From Caldithrix abyssi DSM 13497 (GTDB lineage: Bacteria > Electryoneota > AABM5-125-24 > Hatepunaeales > Hatepunaeaceae): DNA of 64,000 nucleotides. The first letter of the stretch is position 1; the number at the start of each line of letters is the position of its first letter. The notes under the pieces are model-generated. The model did not search any database. It was not told the DNA's origin and saw nothing but the letters and a program-made list of their open reading frames with translations. The position numbers were made by a program, and so were the translations under genes. Location: assembly GCA_945865405.1 (NCBI GenBank), contig CAMBDS010000007.1, positions 1,683-65,682 on the forward strand, written 5' to 3'. Shown one piece after another: positions 2-59,600 of the stretch.

Positions 2-3000
2 ACTCTGAATGCTACCGGGTTGTTCGGCGGCGATTATGAAGCCGAACTTCACTTTCTCTCCAACGATCCTGCGAGTCCTAATCTTGTTCTGGATGTTTTC
101 CTGCAAGTGACCGCAGCTCCAATGATTGTCGTCGAATGGCCAGCTCAGGCAGGATTCCCGGTCATGAATTGGAACCGTGTCTATCCGACCCTTTTCAGTG
201 GCGGTCCTTACACAATTCCCGTCACGATCAAGAATGAAGGAACTGATTTCCTAGTCGTCGAAGACATTTTCTGTGACAATGATTACTTCTCTGCCAATCC
301 TTCTAACTTCGAGGTGGCACCTGACGAAGAAACCGTAGTCGATTTTATCGTTAATGCTGACGAGACAGGACTTCACCTCGGGACAATGACGATTATTTCG
401 AATGATCCTCATCATGGGGAATACGACATCGCCGTCCGAGCCCGTACTGCCGCACCACCTGAAATTGATATTGAACCCGCCTCGATACAGGACGAACTCT
501 TCACAGGCGGAAGTTCGGAGCAGTTTTTGACCGTAACCAATCGAGGTGCTGCGCGCTTGATCTGGGAGAGTGAGCTTGAAATCATCTCAGAGCCAGAGCG
601 CGATCAGGATGCACGCTCGCTACGGGGAATCGACGGCTCGGCCGGACCTCGCCGAGATAATCCGGGCGATATGCTTGGAACATTCAATTGGAACAGGTCT
701 CCCGCAGGAAACTACAAGGCGGGTATCGCTTGGAATCCCGAAAGTGAAATGATGATGTTGACCAGCTACGGTCAAAACTTCATCGGAATCGTCGATCCGG
801 CAAATGGCTATCAGCCTGTCAGAGAGTGGCAACCACCGAATAACCCGATGGGCGCCGCCTGCCTCGAAGGTACCTTTTATGTGGTTGGCTGGAATGGCGG
901 GAATCAGTTCCTCTTCCGTTGGGACATAAACGGGAACAATCTCGGCAACTTCAACACACCCGGCATCGTCCCGACTTCGGTTGCGGCAAGCGCCGACCTC
1001 GAAGTACTTATTGTCGGTGATGGCAACAACAACCGCGACATCTTCGTCTATGACCTTGATGGCGAGCGAGTCGGAACCATCGACCGCGGCAACTATCAGC
1101 AATATACGAACGGCCAATGGCAGCGCAGCATCTGCTGGGTTGACAAGCACCCGGAAGGTCAGCTCTGGATGAACACCCCCGGGCGCTCGTGGCAGTTGTC
1201 CGTCGATACAAATAACTGGGATGTCACTGCAGCCGTCCAAAACCTCTCCAATGGTGGAGGTCAAGACGAATGGGACGGTATCGGTCATGACGGTCACAAC
1301 CTCATTATCGGTCGCACCAACGGGCAAACCTATGAGATCATGGACGACGGCATCACCGAAATGTTCTGGTTCATGTGGGATCCTCAGGAAGGTCAGCTTA
1401 GCGCTGGCAGTAGTCAGGAGATCGTCGTCGGTCTGAACGGCGCAGGATTGTTTGAAGGCTTATATGAAGCCGACCTGCATTTCCTCTCCAACGATCCATC
1501 CCGCCCCGATCACGTAGTCAATATTCAGCTTGACGTCACCGGTGCCAGCGATATAGAGGTAGAATGGTCAGATGACTTCGGGTTCCCGCAAGTCATTGAC
1601 TGGAACCGTGCGTATGAAGACTTCTACAGTGGTGGTCCTTACGATATGATGATTGAAGTATCCAACGGTGGTACCGCCGTCCTTGCTGTTGACGGCATTG
1701 ATTTCGACCATCAGTTCTTCTCAGTTGCACCTGAAAACTTCGTTCTCGATCCGGAAGAAACACGAGAATTGGTTGTAACGTTCAACGCCCCTGCCAACAG
1801 ACCGGGGAACTACAACCAAATGATGACCATTTTCTCAGATGATCCGGATGAGCCTGAGTTTGAAATCGCCCTGCATGCCAATGCGAGTCTGCCGCCGATA
1901 CTCGTAGTTGATCCAGATTTCATTGAAGACGCTCTTCATACCGACGAAATTAGTGAGCATATCCTCTCAGTATCCAATGATGGAGCCGCTCAGTTGCGCT
2001 TCATAATTGAGCACGAAATCACCGCTGAGCCGGAACGGGATCGCAGCTCACGTACCTTGCGTACGGTCGATGGCGGTGCTGGCCCGAACAGGGATAACCC
2101 CGGCGACCTAATTCGTCGTGTCAATGTCGGCATCAATACATTTGGTGGTATGGGTTACGATGAAGAGGAAGGATTGGTCTGGGGTAGCTCCTACGGCAAT
2201 AACCGCATTATCGCCGTCGATCCGAGCAACGATCAGGTCGTGAAGAATTTTGCCGGTCCGGGCGGACCACTCTCAATGGCTTTTGTCAACGGGAATATCT
2301 GGACAACCCAATGGGCAGGAAGCCAGATCTTCGTCTATAACCGAGACGGTCAGAACATCGAGACGTTCAACCTGAACTTTGGTGCGTTTGGCGGTATGGG
2401 TACCAGCATGGAACTCGGTTGTGTCATGATCAACAGTATCAACGATCGCCGTATCCATGTGATCAATATCGAAAATCATCAGGAAGTTGCCAGCTTTGAT
2501 GCTCGCAACGCCTGGCAAGGTGCCGATGTGTACGGTATCGATTGGGTCGATGCCCACCCCGATGGTCAGCTTTGGGGATGTGGCAATGGTCGCCTCTGGC
2601 AGGTTCACGTCGATGAGAACTGGAACTGTCAGGCAGTGCAGAATTTTGCAATCGAAGCCGACGTCCAGCACGCCGAAATGTGCAACGACGGCGAGAACAT
2701 GTGGCATGTCGGTCGTTGGGGCGAACAACAATGGCGCCTCTATGATGACGGCGTCAAGGAAATGCGCTGGCTCAGCTACGAACCGAATGAAGGTACTCTC
2801 GACCAGAATGAAGAGCAGGAGATCCTCGTTACTCTTGATGCGACAGGTCTTATTGGCGGCGACTATGAAGCCGATCTGCATTTCCTTTCGAATGATCCGG
2901 CTCGGCCCGACTTTGTCCTGAATGTCTTCCTCGCAGTGACCGGTGCTCCAGTTGCTGAAGTCGTCTGGAGTGAAGCTGCAGGGTTCCCCAACGTGATTGA

Positions 3001-6000
3001 CTTTAATGGTGTCTTCAACCAACTCTACTCTGGCGGTCCATACCGTATTCCGGTGACTGTTAAGAACGAAGGTACCGAAGTTCTGAACGTCGATGACATC
3101 TCGTGTGATAACGAATATTTCACCGCCGAGCCTTCGAACTTCGTCGTTGAAGTCGGCGAGAGTGTCGTTACCCAATTCATTCTGAACGCTGATGAAGATG
3201 GAATGCATGAAGGGACGATGACGATCTTCTCCGACGACCCGCAACGAGATGAAATCAACATTCCGGTTACCGGACGTACGTCCGCACCACCAATCATGGT
3301 GATTGATCCGGGCTTCATCGACGAAGATTTGTTCACTGGAGCCGTTGATGAACACGTCATCAATATCTCGAACGAAGGTGTCGCAGAGCTTCAGTGGGAG
3401 ACCGATCTCGTAATTATTCGCGAACCCGGTCGTGACGAGAATGCCCGCAGCCTTCGTTCCGTTGACGGTCAAAAAGGCCCAAACCGTGACAACGCCGGCG
3501 ACCTTATCCGCAGGATCAACGTACCTTGGAATACTAATAGCGGTATGGCTTTCGATGGCGAGCTGATGTGGGGCTGTGACTACGGTAACGCCCGACTGAT
3601 CGCGGTTGACCCCGAAAACGATCAGATCGTGGCGAATATCGCTTACGGAGTCAACTCGATGGGGCTGGCTTGGGATGGCGAAAAGCTTTGGGTATCCCCA
3701 TGGGCTGGTAATCAGGTATTTACCTTTGACCAAAACGGACAGCGCCTCGGAACCTACAACTTCAACTTCGGTGCACTTGGCGGTATGGGTTCCGATCTTG
3801 AGGAGGGATACATCTACATCAATTGCATCAACGACCGTCGTATCCATGTCATCAGCGTCGACAACCAACAGGAGGTCGCCAGCTTCGACCCTCGTGGCGC
3901 ATGGCAGAATGCCGACGTATATGGTATCGAATGGGTGACCGATCATCCTGACGGTCAGCTTTGGGGTCACTCCCCTGGGCGTCTCTGGCAGGTTTTTGTT
4001 GATGAAAACTGGAATTGCGCGCCGGTTCAGAATTTCGCAGTGGAGAGCAACGGAGCTCCTCACATTGAAATGGCGAACGACGGTGAGAACATGTGGGTTG
4101 GTGGTAACTGGGGCGAGCAGGCGTGGCGGATTTATGATGATGGCGTGACCGAAATGCGCTGGATTCGCTTTGATCCTACCGAAGGCACAGTAGGCCAAAA
4201 TGCAGATTCCGACGTCTTCATCACTCTTAATGCAACCGGTCTTATCGAAGGTGATTACGAAGCCGACTTACATTTCCTCTCGAACGATCCAGCCAATCCC
4301 GATCAGGCGTTCAACGTCCTTGTTCATGTGACTCCTGCTAGTGATGTGATGGTGGAGTGGTCGGAAGACTACGGCTTCCCCAATAACCTCGATTGGAACG
4401 CGGCTTACGACGACCTCTTCAGTGGTGGCCCGTATGAGATGGTGATCGAAGTCTCCAACAACGGCGTAGAAAATCTCAATGTCAGCGACATCACTTCGGA
4501 TCACGAATACTTCCGTGCAAATCCAACCGAATTCGAGCTTGCACCAGAGCAGTCACGTCAGGTGACCGTTATCTTCGATGCAGCAGCAAACGATCCGGGT
4601 GACTACAATCAAACCCTAACAATCTCTTCCGATGACCCGGATGAAGGTGACTTCGAGATTGCCCTGCATGCCGACGCCAGCTTGCCGCCGGTGATGATTA
4701 TCGATCCTGACCAGATTGAGGATCGTCTCGTCACTGATGAGGTGTCGGAGCATATAATCAACGTTAGCAACGATGGCGACGCTCCGTTGAATTTCGTCAT
4801 CGAAAAAGAGATTATCTCAGAGCCTGAGCGAGATGCGGACTTCCGCCAATTGCGTGGAGTCGACGGCACGGCCGGTCCGTTGCGAGACAACGCCGGTGAT
4901 GAATTGGGTTCATTCGTCTGGGAAGGTGGCGAAGGTCAGAACCAGCACAAGGCTGGTATCGCATACGACTTCGACAACGACCTCCTTTTTGTAACGGGTT
5001 ATGATCGCAATATCTTCGCTATCCTTGACCCTAATGACAACTACCGTGTTGTTCGTCAGTGGAATAACCCCGGTGACGGCAACCCGATGGATGCCGCCTG
5101 GCTGAATGGCGTATTTTACGACATCCAGTTGTGGAACGAAAGGATCTTCCGCTGGGACCTGAACGGCAACCGGCTCAATCCCATCAACACGGCTGGCCGG
5201 CAGGTTCGTGCCATCGCGGCAAGTCAGGAATTGGAAGTCCTATTCTATCTCTACAATCAAGACGTTAGTCGCCTGGTGGTTGCCGATCCGAATAACGGGA
5301 ATGAAATTGCTGTCGTTGACAACTACCGCCAGTATGCGGACAACCGCGACTGTTTCAGTATCCTTTGGGTAGATAAGCATCCGGAAGGTCAACTCTGGCT
5401 GAACGGTTGGGATGCCGGGATTTATCAAATTGCGATTGATACCGACAACTGGCGGGCAACCGGCAGATCAGCTCAATTCCAGATCCCGAATCGTCAGAAT
5501 CCGCAGCCATGGACTGGTATCGGTTTCGATGGCCATAACCTCATTATCGGTGATTACGGCCATGCTCAGTACCAGATCGTTGATGATGGAATCACAGAGG
5601 TTTATTGGCTGAGCTTCGATCCTTCTGAAGGCACTGTTGAAGGCGATTCCGATATGGATATCGACGTGACACTCGACGCCAGTAGCCTGAACGAAGGCGA
5701 TTACATCGCCGACCTTCACTTCCTGTCGAACGATCCGGCTCATCGCGACGAAGCTGTTCGTATAGTGCTGCATGTTACGGGCATACCGATGATCGTGGTT
5801 GAGTGGGATGGCGATATTGGCTTCCCTGACATGATCAACTGGAATGCCGCCTATCCGCAACTCTATACAGGCGGCCCGTACCGCGTTCCAGTAACCGTTA
5901 TCAACGAAGGAACCGCGACCCTGGAGGTCAATGATATCACCTGCGATGATCAAACATTCTCAGCTGATCCTGCCAACTTTGAGGTTGCACCGGGAGAAGA

Positions 6001-9000
6001 GATGGTTATCGATTTCATTCTTGACGCCGACGCAGATGGCCTGCATGAGTCAAGGATGACTATCGCCTCAAACGATCCGGATGGCGATGTCGATATCGCA
6101 GTACGAGGTCGAACTTCTGCTTCGCCAATCATGGAGATCGATCCATTGGAAGTAGGCGCCGACTTGAACACTGGCGATATTACCGAGCGGACAATCAATA
6201 TCTCCAACACTGGCGCAGCTCGTCTGCGTTGGAGTTCCGAGCTTGAAATTGTTCAGGAGCCAGATCGCGACGTGGAGTCTCGCGCTCTTCGCAGTGTCGA
6301 TGGTGCAGTAGGTCCTCAGCGTGACAACCTCGGCGAGGTGCTGGCTCAGTTCTCCTGGAACCGTGCCCAACAAGGGCAATACAAGGCAGGTATGGCATGG
6401 GATCCCGAGAACGAGCTAATGATGCTAACCTGCTACAGTACTAACTTTATGGCTGTTGTGAACCCCGCAAACAACTACGAGGTTGTTCGCGAATGGCAGC
6501 CGCCCAACAATCCGATGGGTGCAGCATGGATGGACGGTATTTCCTATGTGATTGGTTGGACAGGAGGGAATGCGTTCCTCTTCCGTTGGGATGTCGAAGG
6601 TAACAACCTCGGTAATTTTAACACCCCCGGAATCATTCCGACTTCAGTAGCAACAAGCCCCGACCTTGAAGTCATCATCGTTGGTGATGGCAATAATGAC
6701 CGCGACATCCATGTTTACAATACCGATGAAGAACGTATCGCAACCATTCGTCGTGGCAACTACCAGCAGTACACCGGTGGTCAGTGGCAGCGTAGCCTCT
6801 GCTGGGTCGATAAGCATCCCGAAGGCCAGCTCTGGATCAACACTCCGGGACGCGCATGGCAGGTTGAGGTCGATACTGACAACTGGGAGGTTACGCGAAC
6901 GGTACAACAGTTTGGTAACAACGGCGATCAGGAATGGGACGGTATCGGTCACGATGGTGATAACCTCTGGATCGGTCGCTACAACTCACCACAGTACCAG
7001 ATTGTTGACGACGGCGTCGAAGAATTGTACTGGGTCAGATGGGAGCCGGAATTGGGTGAAGTTGCAGCCGGTAGCGATGTCGATGTCGTTGTCACGCTGA
7101 ACGCAACCGACCTGAACGGTGGCATCTACGAAGGTAACATTCACTTCCTCTCGAACGACCCGTCGCACTGGGATGTCGCAGTCAATGTCCTGATCAACGT
7201 CACCGGAGCCCCGGCCGTTGAGACCGACCCGATTGCCATGCCGATGATCGATGCTCCAGACGAGCTTTCGTTTGAATCGACTTATGTCGGTGGAACGCGA
7301 GCTATTTCGGTGACGATTTCCAACACTGGAACAGAAGATCTGGTAATCGAACGGATAACCTCATCGAATGCTGATGAGTTTACTACAGATGCTGACGACG
7401 GACTCTCGATCAACCCTGACGACGAAGCGGTTGTTAACCTTCTCTTCCACCCGACTGATATCGACGACCGTGAAGGTACGATTACTTTCTTCTCGAACGC
7501 CATGAATGTCGGAGAAGGCGATGAAGCCGGGCAATTCTGGTTCGATCTCGTAGGCGTAGGTCAGACCCCACCCGACATTTCGACCGAGCCAGCCAATGAC
7601 GGCTGGATTCGTGTTGGTCTTGAGGTTGGTGATGACCCTGTCGAGCGTGAACTTGTCATCAGTAACGATGCCGGTCAGGGTGGCGACGATCTCGATTGGG
7701 AGATTGTTGTCGAAGAGGTTGAGCAAGAGCGTGACGGCGCAAACCGCAATCTGCGCAGCGTTAACGGCAGTGCTGCTGGTCCGCGCCGTGACCCACCCGA
7801 ATCGCGCTTCGCCATGTTCAAAGATGGTGGTGGCTGGCATGATGGCATGGAAAACATCTTCCAGGAGGAAGGCGTTCAGATCAGGCAGTACAACAGCGGC
7901 TCATTCCGGAACGCACCACTTGATGACTACGAAGTGATCTGGATTCGTGAGTATCAGTCCGACCAGTTCAATAACGAATGGAACAACAACCGCGCCCGCT
8001 TCGAGGAGTGGGTTGATGGCGGTGGTGTGCTGTATCAGGGCACCGGTACGAACAACTGGGCTGTCGTGCCAATCCATGTCGGTGGCTTGCGCCGTCTGCA
8101 GGAAGGTTTCGGCAACGGTACTGTTGTTGGTACAAACGATCTTGATGCTGATAACTACAACTATCTCTGCGAACTGGCAGGATGGCGTGGTGGTGAAAAC
8201 CTGCCCGGCAACTCGTGGTCCCATTCCAGCTATGACCGCAATGCATTTGCCAATATCGACGGTAGCGACTGGTGGCAGGCTATCGCCATCGGTGCCGGTC
8301 GTAATGATCGCCCGGCTGTCGCAGTTTACAACTACGGTCGCGGGTTCTGCATGGTGACAGGCACCACAGACTCCCATCAGTACGGTAACTGGCGTCAGCA
8401 AGGCATGTGGGGATGGGCTTTGAACAAGGTTGTCTGGTATCTTGACTTCCTTGCCAATCAGGGTCCCTCATGGCTTGAGGTCGATCCCGAAGACGGGTCA
8501 CTCGGGCTTGGCGAGGAGACGACAGTCACTCTGACCTTCGACTCCGAACGTCTGGAACCTGATACAGACTATTTTGCCAATCTCATGATCGAGTCGAACG
8601 ATCCTGACCAACCGACGATATTGATCAACGTCCTTCTCCGCACCGGTTCTATCGGCCCTGTCCATTTCGTGGGCTACGACGAAACTGATGTGAACCACAG
8701 CTTATTGGTTACTAATGTCTCATTCGACGGTGAGCAAGTACCTGCTGGCTGGGAAGTCGGAGCCTTCACCCCCGCTGGTGTACTTGCAGGAAGCAGCGTT
8801 TGGGAAGGTGCTGACATGGGTCTGGCGGTCTGGGGCGCTGGTGGTGATCATGATGATTACTTCCGCGACGGCGAAACAGTGAGCCTTCGTATTTGGGATA
8901 ACTCAGCCGATGTTGAGTGGGCTGGTACGGCACGCGTCGAAGAAGGTAGCATGGTTTGGCAGCCAAACGGCTTCACCGCTTTGGCAGTTGAAGGCTTTAG

Positions 9001-10222
9001 TGTCAGAACACAGGAGGTTCGCTTCCGCAACGGCTGGAACTTGATCTCGATCAACATCACCCCAACTAACGAAAACTATTGGGCTGGCGATCCGGGTCCT
9101 GAGATCGTCCCGATGATGTCACAGTTTGCCCGCCCGAATGGTGGAGCGCACCATCTTCTCCTTATGAAGAATGAGCGCGGTCTCTTCTATGTTCCGTCTC
9201 GCGGGTTCAATGGTATTCCTTATTGGAACCTCACTGAGGGATATCAGGTCCGCCTCGACTCAGCGATGTCAGGCTTCTGGACAGGTATGCCGATCGATCC
9301 ACAGGCAGATATTCCAATCGCCCGTGGCTGGAACATGATTGCCTACTTCCCGGACTACCCGTTGATTGCCAACCGTGCAAGCAATAATTACGTCTTGTCT
9401 CCTATCCTCGATAACGTACTTATCGCCAAGGATGCACTCGGACGCTTTATGATCCCGGCTCGTGATCATTTCAGCAACATGCCACCGTGGGAGGCGGGCT
9501 CTGGTTACCAGATCAACGTTAACCAGGCAGTCGTACTGAACTATCCGTTGCCATTCGAAGGGCTTGCTTCACTCAATGTCGAACCGGAGGCATCTGCCAA
9601 AGGTCATTGGGCAGAAGTTCCTTCGACTGGGGCTAACATGAGCGTGCTAATTTCCAAGGTTTTTGGAGTCAAGCTTTCGAACTCTGATCAGGTTGCAGCG
9701 TTCAATAAAGCCGGTCAGCTTGTCGGCGTCAGCAACGTGATCGATGGTCAGGTTGGTATTCCGGTTTGGGGCGACGATAACTCGACCGAAGCAATCGAAG
9801 GCCTTCTTGAAAAAGAGACCTTCACCCTGAAGTTGTGGAAGTCGGATGAAAACATCGTAGTCGATCTCGATATGTCGGCGGTACTTGAAGGTAAGGGACT
9901 TACCTACGAAACCGACGCCTTCACCGTGATTGACGCCGCTGTCCAAATGGCAGTCCCGACCGAGTACTCGCTTGGCCAGAACTACCCGAACCCGTTCAAC
10001 GCAGTCACCCGCATTGCGTTCGGTTTGCCGGAAGCGTCACTTGTCAAGGTTCGCCTGTTCGATCTCTCCGGTCGTGAAGTATCGACTCTCGTGAACGCCG
10101 AGCTGAAGGCTGGTCATCACAGCGTGGTACTGGATGGCGAGGAGATGGTCTCAGGCGTTTACATCGTCAAGATGGAAGCCGCCAACTTCAGTGCCGTTCG
10201 TAAGGTAACGCTTGTGAAGTAA
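2..10222 (+). CDS. Giant secreted multidomain protein, 5'-truncated by the window edge (at least 3,406 codons). It has five tandem ~470-aa supermodules (Ig-like domains plus a ~230-aa five-bladed beta-propeller-like domain), an alpha/beta GATase1/ThuA-like domain, a conserved pre-CTD cassette and a T9SS type-A C-terminal sorting domain.
   Basis: The frame is open from nt 2. TLNATGLFGGDYEAELHFLSNDP at the edge matches the internal module ends LNATGL.GDYEADLHFLSNDP, so the gene continues upstream. The C-terminus YPNPFNAVTRIAFGLPEASLVKVRLFDLSGREV...GVYIVKMEAANFSAVRKVTLVK is the canonical T9SS CTD pattern. A TAA stop is followed by hairpins. Confidence 0.9.
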   Translation, partial: TLNATGLFGGDYEAELHFLSNDPASPNLVLDVFLQVTAAPMIVVEWPAQAGFPVMNWNRVYPTLFSGGPYTIPVTIKNEGTDFLVVEDIFCDNDYFSANPSNFEVAPDEETVVDFIVNADETGLHLGTMTIISNDPHHGEYDIAVRARTAAPPEIDIEPASIQDELFTGGSSEQFLTVTNRGAARLIWESELEIISEPERDQDARSLRGIDGSAGPRRDNPGDMLGTFNWNRSPAGNYKAGIAWNPESEMMMLTSYGQNFIGIVDPANGYQPVREWQPPNNPMGAACLEGTFYVVGWNGGNQFLFRWDINGNNLGNFNTPGIVPTSVAASADLEVLIVGDGNNNRDIFVYDLDGERVGTIDRGNYQQYTNGQWQRSICWVDKHPEGQLWMNTPGRSWQLSVDTNNWDVTAAVQNLSNGGGQDEWDGIGHDGHNLIIGRTNGQTYEIMDDGITEMFWFMWDPQEGQLSAGSSQEIVVGLNGAGLFEGLYEADLHFLSNDPSRPDHVVNIQLDVTGASDIEVEWSDDFGFPQVIDWNRAYEDFYSGGPYDMMIEVSNGGTAVLAVDGIDFDHQFFSVAPENFVLDPEETRELVVTFNAPANRPGNYNQMMTIFSDDPDEPEFEIALHANASLPPILVVDPDFIEDALHTDEISEHILSVSNDGAAQLRFIIEHEITAEPERDRSSRTLRTVDGGAGPNRDNPGDLIRRVNVGINTFGGMGYDEEEGLVWGSSYGNNRIIAVDPSNDQVVKNFAGPGGPLSMAFVNGNIWTTQWAGSQIFVYNRDGQNIETFNLNFGAFGGMGTSMELGCVMINSINDRRIHVINIENHQEVASFDARNAWQGADVYGIDWVDAHPDGQLWGCGNGRLWQVHVDENWNCQAVQNFAIEADVQHAEMCNDGENMWHVGRWGEQQWRLYDDGVKEMRWLSYEPNEGTLDQNEEQEILVTLDATGLIGGDYEADLHFLSNDPARPDFVLNVFLAVTGAPVAEVVWSEAAGFPNVIDFNGVFNQLYSGGPYRIPVTVKNEGTEVLNVDDISCDNEYFTAEPSNFVVEVGESVVTQFILNADEDGMHEGTMTIFSDDPQRDEINIPVTGRTSAPPIMVIDPGFIDEDLFTGAVDEHVINISNEGVAELQWETDLVIIREPGRDENARSLRSVDGQKGPNRDNAGDLIRRINVPWNTNSGMAFDGELMWGCDYGNARLIAVDPENDQIVANIAYGVNSMGLAWDGEKLWVSPWAGNQVFTFDQNGQRLGTYNFNFGALGGMGSDLEEGYIYINCINDRRIHVISVDNQQEVASFDPRGAWQNADVYGIEWVTDHPDGQLWGHSPGRLWQVFVDENWNCAPVQNFAVESNGAPHIEMANDGENMWVGGNWGEQAWRIYDDGVTEMRWIRFDPTEGTVGQNADSDVFITLNATGLIEGDYEADLHFLSNDPANPDQAFNVLVHVTPASDVMVEWSEDYGFPNNLDWNAAYDDLFSGGPYEMVIEVSNNGVENLNVSDITSDHEYFRANPTEFELAPEQSRQVTVIFDAAANDPGDYNQTLTISSDDPDEGDFEIALHADASLPPVMIIDPDQIEDRLVTDEVSEHIINVSNDGDAPLNFVIEKEIISEPERDADFRQLRGVDGTAGPLRDNAGDELGSFVWEGGEGQNQHKAGIAYDFDNDLLFVTGYDRNIFAILDPNDNYRVVRQWNNPGDGNPMDAAWLNGVFYDIQLWNERIFRWDLNGNRLNPINTAGRQVRAIAASQELEVLFYLYNQDVSRLVVADPNNGNEIAVVDNYRQYADNRDCFSILWVDKHPEGQLWLNGWDAGIYQIAIDTDNWRATGRSAQFQIPNRQNPQPWTGIGFDGHNLIIGDYGHAQYQIVDDGITEVYWLSFDPSEGTVEGDSDMDIDVTLDASSLNEGDYIADLHFLSNDPAHRDEAVRIVLHVTGIPMIVVEWDGDIGFPDMINWNAAYPQLYTGGPYRVPVTVINEGTATLEVNDITCDDQTFSADPANFEVAPGEEMVIDFILDADADGLHESRMTIASNDPDGDVDIAVRGRTSASPIMEIDPLEVGADLNTGDITERTINISNTGAARLRWSSELEIVQEPDRDVESRALRSVDGAVGPQRDNLGEVLAQFSWNRAQQGQYKAGMAWDPENELMMLTCYSTNFMAVVNPANNYEVVREWQPPNNPMGAAWMDGISYVIGWTGGNAFLFRWDVEGNNLGNFNTPGIIPTSVATSPDLEVIIVGDGNNDRDIHVYNTDEERIATIRRGNYQQYTGGQWQRSLCWVDKHPEGQLWINTPGRAWQVEVDTDNWEVTRTVQQFGNNGDQEWDGIGHDGDNLWIGRYNSPQYQIVDDGVEELYWVRWEPELGEVAAGSDVDVVVTLNATDLNGGIYEGNIHFLSNDPSHWDVAVNVLINVTGAPAVETDPIAMPMIDAPDELSFESTYVGGTRAISVTISNTGTEDLVIERITSSNADEFTTDADDGLSINPDDEAVVNLLFHPTDIDDREGTITFFSNAMNVGEGDEAGQFWFDLVGVGQTPPDISTEPANDGWIRVGLEVGDDPVERELVISNDAGQGGDDLDWEIVVEEVEQERDGANRNLRSVNGSAAGPRRDPPESRFAMFKDGGGWHDGMENIFQEEGVQIRQYNSGSFRNAPLDDYEVIWIREYQSDQFNNEWNNNRARFEEWVDGGGVLYQGTGTNNWAVVPIHVGGLRRLQEGFGNGTVVGTNDLDADNYNYLCELAGWRGGENLPGNSWSHSSYDRNAFANIDGSDWWQAIAIGAGRNDRPAVAVYNYGRGFCMVTGTTDSHQYGNWRQQGMWGWALNKVVWYLDFLANQGPSWLEVDPEDGSLGLGEETTVTLTFDSERLEPDTDYFANLMIESNDPDQPTILINVLLRTGSIGPVHFVGYDETDVNHSLLVTNVSFDGEQVPAGWEVGAFTPAGVLAGSSVWEGADMGLAVWGAGGDHDDYFRDGETVSLRIWDNSADVEWAGTARVEEGSMVWQPNGFTALAVEGFSVRTQEVRFRNGWNLISINITPTNENYWAGDPGPEIVPMMSQFARPNGGAHHLLLMKNERGLFYVPSRGFNGIPYWNLTEGYQVRLDSAMSGFWTGMPIDPQADIPIARGWNMIAYFPDYPLIANRASNNYVLSPILDNVLIAKDALGRFMIPARDHFSNMPPWEAGSGYQINVNQAVVLNYPLPFEGLASLNVEPEASAKGHWAEVPSTGANMSVLISKVFGVKLSNSDQVAAFNKAGQLVGVSNVIDGQVGIPVWGDDNSTEAIEGLLEKETFTLKLWKSDENIVVDLDMSAVLEGKGLTYETDAFTVIDAAVQMAVPTEYSLGQNYPNPFNAVTRIAFGLPEASLVKVRLFDLSGREVSTLVNAELKAGHHSVVLDGEEMVSGVYIVKMEAANFSAVRKVTLVK
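47..7165 (+). repeat. Intragenic tandem array of five coding supermodules of ~1.39-1.45 kb each. These are protein-level repeats with diverged synonymous sites.
   Basis: The anchor (L/I)HFLSNDP recurs at nt 47, 1475, 2876, 4268, 5714 and 7139, giving periods of 1428, 1401, 1392, 1446 and 1425 nt. Propeller subtypes run in the order A-B-B-A-A. Confidence 0.85.
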
Positions 10223-13133: not shown

Positions 13134-15520
13134 TTACTTTACGAGGGTCAGTTTGCGGGTCTCGCTGAAGGAGCCGGCACTCATCTTCACCATGTAAAGA
13201 CCGGCAGGAGCCGCGTCAGCATTCCAGACGGCAGCGTGGTTGCCTGCGGCGAGATTGCCGTCGGCAAGGGTTGCCACGAGGCGGCCTGTCATGTCGAAGA
13301 CCTGAACCGCAACCTTGCCAGCCTCAGGCAAGCCAAAGGCGATGCGGGTCGTGGAGTTGAACGGGTTCGGGTAGCTGTTGCTGAGGTAGAAGTTGTCAGG
13401 AACCGAAACCGAAGCAGTCGCCGCAAGGTTCGCGAAACCATCGGTCTCATAAGCGAGTGAGCCTTGGTTCAGATCGGCTTCAAGCACCAGCTCGACACCC
13501 TTGTCAGCGTCCCAGAGGCGCAGGGTGAATTCTTCACCCTTTTTCAGACCATCGACAGCCTCAGTCGAGAGGTCATCCCCCCAAACCGCCAAACCACACA
13601 TGCCGCCTTCCTGAACCGTCCCGACTCCAACAACAACTCCATTGGCATCGATAGCCGCGATCTGATCGCCGTTGCGGGCGTTTTTGCCTTCGATAGAGGT
13701 GATGAGAACGCTCATGTTCAAGCCGGTGTTGGCTGGTTCGCTCCAGTGACCATTTCCGGGAGCAATTGGCCCACGGAATTCTACCATGCTGTCAGCTTGA
13801 GCGGGGTAGTTCAGGACGACATCTTCGCTAACCTTGATCTGGTAACCTTGCGATTCGCGCCAGTTGCCCATGTTGCTGAAGTTGTTGGGCGGTGACAGGA
13901 AGTTACCAGCGCGATCCTTGGCGATGATTACGTTGTTGATGATCGAAGAGAGGGCGTAGAAGCCGCTTTCGCTCGAAACGGACAATTCGTAGTTCGGGTA
14001 GTAGGCGATCATGTTCCAGCCGGTAAGAATTTCGATGTCGGCGTTCGCCGGGATTGGCCAGCCTGTCCAGCTGCCACTTGCCGCTGTATCCATTTTCACC
14101 TGATAGCCGTTCGACAAGTCCCAGTAGGGGATGTTGTTGAAGTTGTGAGCAGGCCAGTAGAAACGGCCGCGCTCATCCTTCATGATGTGCAGGTTGCCGT
14201 CGAACTGCGCCATCATCCAGCGAACGTCGGGGCCTTGGTCCATGCGCCAAAGGTTCTGCGGCGGCATGACGTTGACAGAGATCAGGTTCCAGTTTTGTTG
14301 CAGATCGATGCTCATCGTGTAAACTTGATCGAGCATCAACGAGGTCTCGCCGTCGATAGTCCACTCGAGGCTACCTTCCTGTGCTATCGCACCGATCCAG
14401 TACTCACGGTTGCTGACGTTGTCCCAAAGGCGGAAGTTCATCATTTCGCCTTCCATGAAGCCTTCGATGTCCCAAAGGCGGAAGTTCATCATTTCGCCTT
14501 CCATGAAGCCTTCGATCTGCTCGGTGGTGTTGTCGTCACCCCAGGCGCTGATGCGGGATTCTTCGTTGTAACCTGCCCAGGCACGCGTGTCGCCTTCGTT
14601 GGCGGTGACGAGGAAAGTCTGGCCGCCCTGACTGAAAGAGGCATACCGTCGGGGAGGTACATGCCCTTGATCGGGTGAGTCACAATATTGACGACGTTGT
14701 CACGGTCGGTGGCGTCGAAGCCGTTACCCTCTATTGAGTGGTCTTTGAAACCGAGGGGGGAGCAAGTCTGTGACCATACCGTTATCGATATCGATGACTG
14801 CGATGGTGTTGGCTTCCTGAATGGAGACCCAAGCCCAGCGTGAGTCGCTCGAGACGGTGATGTACTCTGGCTCAAAGTCTTCCGAAGCCGAGGCGTTGGG
14901 GCCAAAGATGCGGACGTTAGCTGCTCTGAGCGAGTCTTCCATACCGTCGAACTGGTGGAAGTCAACGCTGACGACCGAGATCTGATCGATGCCTTGTGAG
15001 AGGTCGATGATGCTGATGGTGCCTTCCGGGTCAACGGTGTAGGCGTCGTTCGGCTCGCCCTCGTTGGCGCAGAGGACTTTCATGCCGTCGTGGGTGAAGG
15101 TCACCATGTCGGGGAGTGCGCCGACTCCAATGGAGTTGAGGAAGTCACCAGCCTGTTGAAGAAAACGACCATCCCGGGGTCGGTTTTGGGTGATGCTTCG
15201 ACAGCGGCGGCGACAATGCCGTTTTTCACTGTGACGCTGTTGACGCCTGCGCCGTAGGCGTCGAGGTCGATCATAGTGACCAACTCAGGTGAGTCGGGGT
15301 TGCTGATATCGACGATGGTGACGGCGTTGTCAGCGGCGCCGGTTAGGAAGACGCGTTGCGTTTCGGGGTCGTAGCTGGCGATTTCGGCTCCGCCCGCGTT
15401 GTAAAAGCCGGTGCTGTAGGAGGAGAGGTAGTTTAATTCGACGCTCATCTCGGCGGATGATTGGCTAACAAGCCCGACCGCCAGCAAGATTGTGGAGATA
15501 TGTAACTTGAGTGACCTCAT
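13134..15520 (-). pseudogene. Choice-of-anchor-I / LVIVD-like beta-propeller protein fused to the pre-CTD cassette and T9SS CTD. It is disrupted by three frameshifts and carries a 48-bp in-frame duplication.
   Basis: A signal peptide (MRSLKLHISTILLAVGLVSQSSA) sits at 15520. Homologous sequence continues across three frames: ..VVFF|QAGDFLNSIGVGALPDMVTFTHDG.. (shift ~15155-15165), ..VTDLLP|LGFKDHSIEGNGFDATDRD.. (G6 run 14755-14760), and ..GMYLPDG|YASFSQGGQTFLVTANEGDTRAW.. (shift ~14645). It then runs into ORF 13134-14504, which ends in the CTD YPNPFNSTTRIAFGLPEAG...RKLTLVK. Confidence 0.8.
14421..14516 (-). repeat. Perfect 48-bp tandem duplication (2 copies), in frame
   Basis: gtcccaaaggcggaagttcatcatttcgccttccatgaagccttcgat occurs at 14421-14468 and again at 14469-14516. 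It encodes IEGFMEGEMMNFRLWD twice. Confidence 0.95.
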
Positions 15521-56632: not shown

Positions 56633-59600
56633 TCACTTGACCAGAACAACCTTCGTTGTTGCTGTTCGGCCATTAGACTCAAGTCGCAACATATAAACCC
56701 CTGCAGCAAGGCCTTCTGCGTTCCAGACGACTTGGTGGGTGCCTGAAGAATAGCGGCCGGAGGTCAACAGTGCAACTTGCCGACCGGAAAGGTCGTAAGC
56801 GGCAAGTGTCGTCCTGCCAGCTTGCGCAAGCGAGAAGGTCAGGCTTAGGGTCGAGTTGAACGGATTGGGGTAGGTGGAATTGATGCCAAATTCAACCGGA
56901 AGGGTACCTGAGTTAAGTTCGACAACTCCCCAACCACCGGTCGTGAAGGCAAAATCGCCCGAAAGAGATACGGAATAGCCGACTTCGGCGGATTTTTTTT
57001 GGGACACAACTCTGATCTCTGGCACTTCGCTAGCGACAAAGCCCTCGACCAGTTCGGTTGACGGATCGTCGCCGTACAAGGTCAATCCCGCCATTCCATC
57101 ACCGCCAACTACGCCACGCCCCGCAACAGATCTGGAAGGAGTCAGCGCTTCCAGTCGGGTGCCTGCTTTTAAATCGCTGATGACGAGAAGGCTGTGCATC
57201 GCGGAGCTACTGGAAATTCCGTCCAACCATACTGCGTCTGCGTTGTTGTAGCGATTGCCAACGGAGGCTCGCTGGTCTCGGGAATAGACCAGTTCGGCGT
57301 CTTCATTGACCCGAACCTGATAGCCCGCGCCGGGTCTAAGTCGATCCATGTCGCTGAAGTTGTAGGCGGGCAGGTAAAATCGACCCTTTCCGTCACGAGC
57401 GATCACCAGATTATCGCCAAGCCCGCTAAAGCCTACTTCAGCGAAAACAGGCGAACGCGGAACATAGGCAATCGTATTCCAGCCTCTGTTGAGCCCTATA
57501 GGAGCGTCATTTGGAAGCGGTTGACCGGCGATGGTCAGAGAGAACTCGCCCGATACTTTCAGCCAGTAGCCGTCCTGCCACTCCCACGAATCGATACCGT
57601 CAAAATTGTGGTCCGGCCAATAGAAGTTGCCCATTCCGTCTTTCCCGAGGATCAACTGCCCGGCATCTACCAGTGGCTGCAGTATCGCTGAAAAATCATC
57701 CGCTTGAACCGGCAATACATTTGTTGAGATGAGATTCCAGCCATTGTCCAACAATATGGTTCGATCGACCATGGCATCTTCAAACGTGACGCTGAGTGTA
57801 ACAGGAAGTTCGACCATGCTACCTACACCATTATGGCTGAACCGTAGCGTGGTTGTGTACACATAATCAGGAGTCAGCCAGTTGGAGTCGAAACTAACAT
57901 CTATTTCTGTCGTGGCATCAGGCTCAATCTCTCCGGCTACAGGATGGGAAACTATCCAATCGGTTTTTGCGGCCAGATTATGGAGATAGAGTCGGTCGTT
58001 CACACCAGCGTTGCTAATACCGAGAAATGTCCAGTTGTATGGATTGACTGAATGTGAAATTGTACAACCAGCTGGTCTTCCTCCGTCGTCAGGAAGCTCC
58101 ATCGCCAGCATTGTATCATTAGTGTTGATGTCCATCTTCATCACAACTCTGCGTGAGTCAATGGGGTTTGTGTAGAAATAGAGCTGGTGTCCGTCAGGGT
58201 CTTTAGGATGGAATCCGAGACCATACGTCCGCATACGACGCGCATTAAGGGTAGTCCGGATATTGCCTTCACGATCACATCCATAGATCGGAGTAATTGC
58301 TCCCGACACCCAGTAGAGTTGACGTTGACTATCCCAAACAATATTACTTGAACCTTGGGCAACAGGCCCAACGAAGCTGGTGATTGAGTCGCCGTCAGTG
58401 TTGAAGCCATAGAGGATCTCGTCAGATCCACCCCAAAGAAGTTCACCGTCCCAAGTGAGACTGGTAAATCCGAATCGTTCTTGCGAAAGCTGGGGAAAGG
58501 TACGCAAAAGCTCACCCTCGCTGTTCAGAACGTAGATCAGCTTTTCCTGGTTAGCATAACCGGCGAGGTAGTAATGTCCATCGACAAAGACTACAGCCTG
58601 AATTCTCTCGTCACCTGTAATTTGGCTTATAGGGAGCGTGTTCATCACTTCCCATGGGGCGTGTTGATGTTCTTCTGGAAAGTCGAGAGTGGAACTCCAG
58701 GTCAGGGTTCCGTTACCGGGATTAGTAACCGTCAACGTCGATTGGAGGGTGTCGTTCAGCTTCATATCAACTTCGAGATCTCGTGGGCGCAACGAAAACT
58801 CGCCGTGAAGAAGATTGAAGTTTTCTTCGAGATCGTCGCCCGGGTTCACTTCGATCTCTCTTGTTTGCGAAAAATAGTCGCGGCGTGAGACTTCAAATAT
58901 GTAATTCCAGGCGGCAATACCATCGAAACTGTAGTAACCGTTTTCGTCGGTAGTATCTGAGTAGTCATACATCACAGAGGCAACTACTGCCCCTTCGACT
59001 CCTGAACCGTCCGCGGCGTCACGGATTTGACCCGAGATTCTACCGCGTCCAGATACTATGAGTATATGAATAGGGATTACTGTTTCAAGTTGATATGGAT
59101 CGTTTGCCTCGATCAAAATTTCACGCTGATACTCACCAATCTCCAAGTCGTCCGTTACGGCAGAGAGTCGGACGTCTTCAGCTTCCCCCGCTTCAATAAA
59201 TCCTTCGTTCGGGTCAATTCGTAGCCAGGATGGTTCGTCACCCACGTCTGAGATTTCGTAATGCAGTCGGTGAATTTCGTCATGAACATCGGAGAGATTC
59301 ATGATGCGGAAATTCTGCTGGTCTGATTCACCGCGTACTGTGTGATTGAATTGGACTTCATCTCTTTCAAAACCAATTTCGCCGTAAACCTCTGGTATTC
59401 CGTCGTCATATCTGTAAATGTTCACACTGTTCCAATTTCCGCCACCCCAAAGATCAAATCCGTCGTGCGTTAGGCCTTGATGAGGGTAATCATTGTTATT
59501 TGAGGCAAATTCACGAATCAAATCCGCTTCATTATCCTCGAAATTGACATCAAATTGCGAGATATAGCTATGTGACAATAGCCAGAAATGTCCTTCAGTA

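Follow-up and report, generated by a model that had tools for sequence, protein, structure and literature searches.

Introduction

Annotation of the cargo of the type IX secretion system (T9SS) rests almost only on its C-terminal domain (CTD), and conserved immunoglobulin (Ig)-like domains preceding the CTD are already known as a kind of feature. The closest described case is that of the gingipains, in which a domain of the immunoglobulin superfamily (IgSF) stands before the CTD; in RgpB, where a linker of 9 residues joins the two, PorU cleavage leaves the IgSF domain on the mature protein, and the term "spacer or insulator" has been applied to it (PMC4804311). In the current study we describe the region before the CTD in three proteins encoded in a stretch of 64,000 nucleotides (hereafter the window, the whole stretch of DNA analyzed) of contig 7 (CAMBDS010000007.1) from a 2.76-Mb, 43-contig, approximately 90% complete assembly: a giant protein whose frame occupies positions 2..10222 of the + strand, a pseudogene and a cargo protein of 1,190 amino acids. 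In these proteins the region is filled by two large families, here termed X and Y, that have no Pfam or NCBIfam model and no solved structure, and that follow the order [X1]-Y-X2, in which Y is a double repeat, X1 the copy preceding Y where present, and X2 the copy between Y and the CTD. Two or three new domain families, possibly with a new fold among them, can be proposed on good grounds from this cassette, and its distribution leads us to favor, tentatively, a role in binding or attachment at a surface.

The likeness between X2 and the gingipain IgSF domain (RgpB, Kgp, PPAD; Peptidase_C25_C) lies in a seven-stranded Ig-like sandwich placed directly before a type A CTD on a short linker, which measures 2-10 residues in 23 of the 24 cases found in the genome. 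Besides, the RgpB chains 4ief_D and 1cvr were among the weak Foldseek matches of X, with a TM-score of about 0.30. Unlike the gingipain domain, X also builds arrays far from the CTD, and gingipains have nothing like Y. The gingipain family PF03785 was matched by one of 58 X copies, below the cut-off (E 0.073), and the likeness is an analogy of position and structure only, not one of sequence membership.

Two further systems were compared with Y. The type A cellulose-binding module CBM64 of Spirochaeta thermophila (PF18666) is aromatic-rich and similar in size (~86 aa) to one Y repeat, but it is an all-beta sandwich of nine strands (PMC7867066), while the AlphaFold2 (AF2) model shows a helix in either repeat of Y. 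Weak CBM64 matches were obtained for 2 of 32 Y copies (best E 0.008), the best in the genome reaching 17.2 bits against a cut-off of 25 with partial coverage of the model, and CBM64 was not among the 50 PDB matches listed for the Y model, none of which was significant. Sub-cut-off scores together with the different fold class rule out CBM64 as the identity of Y. The Listeria GW modules, found in proteins such as InlB and Ami, are C-terminal tandem Gly-Trp repeats of ~80 aa by which a variety of surface proteins are held, without a covalent bond, on a polymer of the envelope. Y resembles them in its own tandem ~80-aa Gly-Trp repeats near the C-terminus, which is an analogy and not homology, and the Y copies gave neither a Pfam match to GW or SH3_8 nor an SH3-like Foldseek match.

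The FlgD Ig-like domain (PF13860) was also considered; an earlier note on this DNA, prepared from the sequence, had named FlgD-Ig-like and carbohydrate-binding modules as families that would remove the novelty of X and Y. A weak Foldseek match of X to FlgD of P. aeruginosa was recovered (3osv, E 0.046, TM-score 0.40), and the FlgD_ig matches reported by Pfam fall on the CTD (residues 671-729 of a 740-aa fragment). When scanned copy by copy, FlgD_ig matched 1 of 32 Y copies at E 0.11 and none of the X copies, and it was ruled out as the identity of X or Y by the location of its matches on the CTD. The novelty of both domains held against these candidates.

A tail shared by three proteins and reused across the genome

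The domain borders in the window were determined from the translation of the three regions and their mutual alignment, and iterated hidden Markov models (HMMs) for Y, X and the CTD were run over all stop-to-stop open reading frames (ORFs) of the genome. The three tails align over their whole length, carry the sequence motifs quoted in the earlier note and lie where it had placed them, with a similarity far beyond chance (Y matches in the genome at E 1e-29 to 1e-99). The order X-Y-X-CTD that had been attributed to all three proteins was narrowed to Y-X-CTD (Table 1), because an intact leading X exists in the giant protein only: the first X of the pseudogene persists as a C-terminal remnant broken by a 48-bp tandem duplication, and in the 1,190-aa cargo the X HMM search found no X upstream of Y, where another Ig-like domain is located instead. 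In the window alignments, identity to the giant protein ranges from 36 to 52% among Y copies and from 20 to 47% among X copies compared with its X2. The three CTDs all exceed the cut-offs of PF18962 (34.5-38.8 bits, cut-off 27) and TIGR04183 (38.5-43.1 bits, cut-off 23).

Y is an internal duplication of a repeat of ~80 aa (hhalign probability 99.8%, E 8e-28). In the giant protein the two repeats extend over about 9005-9307 and 9308-9556, and each carries the motifs GWN(L/M)I(S/A), (K)D..G.F..P, F(N/S)N(I/M) and GYQ(V/I). The X1 of the same protein carries the variant loop WGAGGDHDDYF, can be aligned with the other X copies and groups with X1 and array copies in the X tree.

Table 1. Positions of the cassette domains and sorting domains in the window
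Feature	Position	Strand	Evidence and remarks
Giant protein, X1	8654..9001	+	Ig-like beta-sandwich of the X1/array subtype; X HMM match, ORF C7_1_11901 residues 3450-3557
Giant protein, Y	9002..9556	+	Two tandem ~80-aa alpha/beta repeats; profile match E 1.8e-97
Giant protein, X2	9599..9946	+	Pre-CTD X subtype, 7-stranded beta-sandwich, conserved loop WGDDxxT...G...GE; X2 clade in tree
Giant protein, T9SS type A CTD	9947..10219	+	PF18962 34.5 bits; TIGR04183 38.5 bits; stop codon 10220-10222
Pseudogene, X1 remnant (C-terminal half only)	14328..14558	-	Two partial X matches, residues 31-79 and 77-123
Pseudogene, Y double repeat (open frame)	13797..14327	-	Profile match E 8.4e-99; 52% identity to giant Y
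Pseudogene, X2	13410..13754	-	X HMM match residues 319-426; 47% identity to giant X2
Pseudogene, T9SS type A CTD	13137..13409	-	PF18962 38.8 bits; TIGR04183 43.1 bits
1,190-aa cargo, Y double repeat	57275..57775	-	Profile match E 1.2e-81
1,190-aa cargo, X2 (divergent copy, YGDDPST loop)	56909..57238	-	X HMM match residues 1000-1102
1,190-aa cargo, T9SS type A CTD	56636..56908	-	PF18962 38 bits; TIGR04183 41.4 bits

The cassette is not special to the three proteins in which it had been noticed. Across the genome, a type A CTD was found in 172 ORFs, Y in 31 ORFs (32 copies) and X in 35 ORFs (81 copies), and the order [X]-Y-X-CTD occurs in 24 ORFs, with X directly before Y in 10 of the Y copies. 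A conserved stretch of ~400 residues thus precedes the CTD in roughly a seventh of the T9SS cargo (24/172), on passengers that are unrelated to one another. Among the remaining Y ORFs, two run off contig ends and five are complete without a CTD, namely three secreted proteins in which only two residues follow Y, one protein consisting of a signal peptide followed by Y-X-Y, and one lipoprotein X-Y-X. The description of X as a pre-CTD domain did not hold in general, since giant proteins hold most of the copies well away from the CTD, in arrays that reach 15 copies, and the X2 subtype alone is pre-CTD. The genome also encodes the machinery for export and processing, with PorU (NF033707, 608.5 bits, cut-off 420) and SprA (TIGR04189, above cut-off). 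For a genome of this size, 172 ORFs with a type A CTD represent an unusually large T9SS secretome.

The linker between Y and X2 comprises 15-27 residues of variable sequence. Median identity between paralogues is 36.7% for Y, 33.7% for X2 and 34.5% for the CTD, a divergence that excludes recent gene conversion or shuffling as the source of the similarity and, on sequence grounds, indicates that the cassette copies are old; together with the high copy number of Y across the family, it suggests that selection, rather than recent copying, accounts for them. In the X tree, the copies that follow Y cluster apart from the X1 and array copies, with weak branch support, and the X2 label changes twice over the tree compared with a mean of 20.7 in shuffled labels (0 of 500 shuffles as low). 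The CTD tree (n=168), which is poorly resolved, shows the 23 Y-X-linked CTDs scattered (19 label changes, shuffled mean 21.8), and therefore no dedicated CTD subclass accompanies the cassette; the idea that Y-X is tied to such a subclass, or travels with its own CTD as a unit, was unsupported.

Structure and family assignment

The AF2 model of Y, built from 32 paralogues, is a single rigid body (pLDDT 94.6, pTM 0.88) in which each of the two repeats follows the order beta-beta-(beta)-helix-beta-beta-beta-beta. The model of X, built for the X2 of the giant protein with 58 paralogues, reached a pLDDT of 97.2 and consists of seven strands in an Ig-like sandwich, so that both domains are predicted with confidence to fold alone. 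Foldseek comparison of the Y model with the PDB returned nothing at E <= 0.001 (best TM-score 0.21). Against BFVD, the best match of Y was a "putative hemin binding protein" from an uncultured marine phage contig (E 5e-3, TM-score 0.49); we regard this protein as a multi-domain homologue and draw no functional conclusion from it. X gave weak and generic Ig-like or transthyretin-like matches (E 0.03-0.2, TM-score 0.3-0.5) that include FlgD, the PapC C-terminal domain, pilins and the RgpB chains.

Sequence searches agree with the earlier note, which had been unable to place X or Y in a known family. Pfam and NCBIfam scans of the window tails recognized the CTD alone and nothing on X or Y; scanning every Y and X copy against Pfam at E <= 10 revealed no consistent family, with CBM64 as the single hint to recur; and profile searches of PDB sequences with Y, X and an Anaerolineae Y-X sequence returned nothing significant. 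The family of Y lacks annotation and any solved structural neighbor, and the model shows the domain as a rigid alpha/beta body of two repeats. A literature search covering T9SS in Caldithrix/Calditrichaeota, the Electryoneota paper and the Y motifs found nothing on the cassette. Neither the libraries nor the literature searched contain a description of Y as a double repeat, of the stereotyped order X1-Y-X2 or of an expansion on this scale.

Distribution in other bacteria

The Y profile was searched against 1.84 billion representatives of clusters at 50% identity and matched 14,946 of them at E <= 1e-3, 7,812 at E <= 1e-10 and 1,756 at E <= 1e-30, most of which belong to Calditrichota/Electryoneota-like bacteria of the Fibrobacteres-Chlorobi-Bacteroidetes (FCB) group. 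In the best 168 of the 14,946 matches, from which the architectures were counted, 133 proteins (about 80%) end in Y-X-CTD and 24 stop within five residues after Y. The order [X]-Y-X-CTD was found in named records of Calditrichota ("Caldithrix", up to 75% identity), Electryoneota (Hatepunaea), Bacteroidales, Salinibacteraceae, Zixibacteria, Ignavibacteria and Fidelibacterota. All 50 complete representatives that were scanned carry PF18962, and their passengers are very diverse (LVIVD, beta-helix, NosD, subtilase, PA14, cadherin, propeller). The claim that the tail is a unit reused independently of its passenger was thereby borne out, with choice-of-anchor I domains as a further passenger type.

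The link to the CTD that had been proposed is strong but not exclusive. Chloroflexi have no T9SS; in Anaerolineae, a C-terminal Y-X without a CTD is combined with CARDB, VWA, cohesin and proprotein-convertase P domains, and a deltaproteobacterial record carries X-Y without a CTD; these copies share the repeat variant GWNLIS...SYYPDLP...PGHGYWI. A search with the Anaerolineae form recovered 419 further proteins, which, if named by their source at all, are called "hypothetical" or after another domain, and whose partners are CARDB, P-domain, VWA, cohesin and PD40 in Chloroflexi, and T9SS CTDs in Zixibacteria and Marinimicrobia. Occurrence of the cassette without a CTD, which the earlier note had regarded as damaging to its proposal, was thus found in part, in 5 of the 31 Y ORFs of the genome and in about 24 of the 168 top representatives. 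Additionally, a record labelled Candidatus Komeilibacteria (L042) holds a Y-X of the Calditrichota type (KD..G.FY motif, E 4e-50) that ends without a CTD; its contig, binned as a bacterium of the candidate phyla radiation, is probably mis-binned.

The expansion of Y is sharply lineage-specific. Genomes of the window's own family hold from 8 to at least 46 Y copies, and most other families of the phylum hold 0-4. Genomes G007-G010, G030 and G037 of the same phylum have at least 46 copies, and first-look candidates number as many as 254 in one genome of 6 Mb.

Proteins consisting of the cassette and proteins ending in Y

Several proteins contain hardly anything besides the cassette. These include proteins with a signal peptide (SP), two Y-X units and a CTD, in which Y begins directly after the signal peptide (P0023-P0028); SP-Y-X-Y proteins followed by a stop codon (one ORF on contig C13 of this genome, P0022 and P0027); and an SP-Y-CTD protein (L027). 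The NCBI name of the cassette-only proteins is just "T9SS type A sorting domain-containing protein". Moreover, a lipoprotein X1-Y-X2 stands alone without a CTD at C2:195776-197305 (locus L060, 7777-9306), with an ortholog at L032 (1069-2442). The protein is thus conserved in two genomes, and its lipobox reads LTAPGC here and VIGC in the ortholog. In this genome the lipoprotein gene is divergent from a pair of genes for a TonB-dependent receptor and an HmuY-like protein; this neighborhood is not kept at the orthologous locus, and therefore a heme/TonB link of the cassette, at which the name of the BFVD match had also hinted, was dropped.

Complete secreted proteins ending two residues after Y at a true stop codon are encoded at C5:54569-55549, C10:71178-72464, C11:3669-5558 and C13:31427-32974, and three of these four genes directly adjoin genes for CTD-bearing cargo. 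Database proteins that end in Y include a family of ~295-300 aa with a signal peptide, an N-terminal domain of ~135 aa and then Y. A protein of 3,424 aa from Cloacimonadota (P0021, MCF7912336.1), named only "PKD domain-containing protein", contains five Y copies without X or CTD, and therefore Y can also be used as an array unit.

Interpretation of the cassette

We tentatively favor, giving it a little less than an even chance, the reading of [X1]-Y-X2 as an autonomous foot for binding or attachment at a surface, and not as a T9SS adaptor. It is suggested by the reuse of the tail with unrelated passengers, by the CTD-less Y-X of Anaerolineae, by the conserved acidic loop of X, which lies outside the strands (T10, D59 and D60, with the GDDxxT motif), by the presence of the T9SS machinery, by the confident prediction that each domain folds alone and by the age and number of the Y copies. 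The existence of SP-(Y-X)2-CTD, SP-Y-X-Y, lipoprotein X-Y-X and SP-Y-CTD proteins is hard to reconcile with a mere spacer or with an adaptor for export, neither of which would be needed alone. Among the functions that the earlier note had offered for the unit, a secretion or processing adaptor is disfavored by the CTD-less forms, and autonomous binding or attachment is favored.

The cassette would then be an independently folding extracellular module that serves as the standard membrane-proximal foot for a large share of the T9SS cargo in this FCB lineage. Following export through the T9SS, the CTD would be cut off by PorU and X2 would become the new C-terminal, anchor-bearing domain, as the gingipain IgSF domain does, for which the IgSF-CTD tandem of RgpB is the precedent (PMC4804311), and Y would sit just above it. 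The specific function would be supplied by Y, which, probably together with the acidic loop of X, may bind a common ligand, most likely a glycan or another polymer, present in the envelope of the cell itself or in particulate substrate, and passengers of very different kinds would in this way be kept at a surface. Within this scheme, and as a rough division, retention or organization at the own surface appears somewhat the more probable, closely followed by binding of an environmental polymer.

Some observations weigh against a foot of this kind. The Y-ending CTD-less proteins that were inspected have ordinary signal peptidase I (SPI) signal peptides and may not reach the surface at all. In addition, glycoside hydrolases were not enriched among the passengers of the 50 representatives, which thus lack the classical pattern of carbohydrate-active enzymes joined to carbohydrate-binding modules. 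Finally, the conservation of Y falls mainly on strands and Gly/Pro turns, with poorly conserved helices, which would fit a purely structural domain too, and therefore a passive stalk or insulator stays a serious alternative, if on balance an unlikely one. X and Y would in that case be inert, spacing the passenger from the CTD and the outer membrane, and would have been multiplied by domain shuffling in the lineage. The generic Ig-like fold of X and its presence in the long arrays of giant proteins agree with such a role, as do the name given to the RgpB domain and the fixed position of the cassette beside the CTD on a short linker. However, whole proteins are made of the cassette with a signal peptide or lipobox alone, Y is as conserved as the CTD among long-diverged paralogues, X has its conserved acidic loop, and a two-repeat alpha/beta domain of fixed architecture would be an unusual spacer.

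The two other roles considered are less likely than the stalk. An assembly module, by which shared tails, cassette-only and Y-terminated proteins would bind one another and build a surface layer with variable passengers, would account for the dozens of paralogous tails per genome and for the cassette-only proteins as "filler", and the CTD-less Y-terminated proteins would depend on a partner for remaining cell-bound; nevertheless, the paralogous tails are only about 35% identical, which speaks against one common interface, and this explanation is improbable. A T9SS-specific adaptor, with Y-X2 presenting the CTD to PorV, SprA or PorU or chaperoning large cargo in the periplasm, would suit the predominant Y-X-CTD ending and the short X2-CTD linker, but it is very improbable, given that 141 of the 172 CTD-bearing ORFs lack Y, that the Y-X-linked CTDs form no special subclass and that Y, alone or with X, is also found where no CTD is present, including the lipoprotein and proteins of Chloroflexi, a group devoid of T9SS.

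A bolder version of the foot reading, which we consider rather doubtful, is that Y is an undescribed fold acting as a lineage-wide docking or anchoring domain that holds much of the T9SS secretome through the Y-X2 foot. If so, tens to perhaps more than 100 T9SS proteins per genome would stand on one kind of foot in Calditrichota/Electryoneota-like bacteria, as a non-covalent counterpart or complement to anchoring by A-type lipopolysaccharide (A-LPS), and the CTD-less Y-ending proteins would be recruited by the same ligand. Defining the X and Y families would allow thousands of metagenomic proteins, encoded by Chloroflexi and by FCB bacteria of marine and sediment origin, to be annotated better, would provide, for Y, a confident structural model for a domain without a PDB neighbor, and would offer a handle on how T9SS cargo is retained and organized on surfaces outside Bacteroidota; if the cassette is only a stalk, the gain is one of annotation alone.

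Additional features of the pseudogene

Upstream of the pseudogene tail, a choice-of-anchor I fragment is found in the same and in other frames. The duplication that splits the X1 remnant of this pseudogene is perfect and occupies 14420-14516 (Tandem Repeats Finder: period 48, 2.0 copies, 100% match); it is in frame, doubles IEGFMEGEMMNFRLWD, and represents either a very recent slippage event or an assembly artefact.

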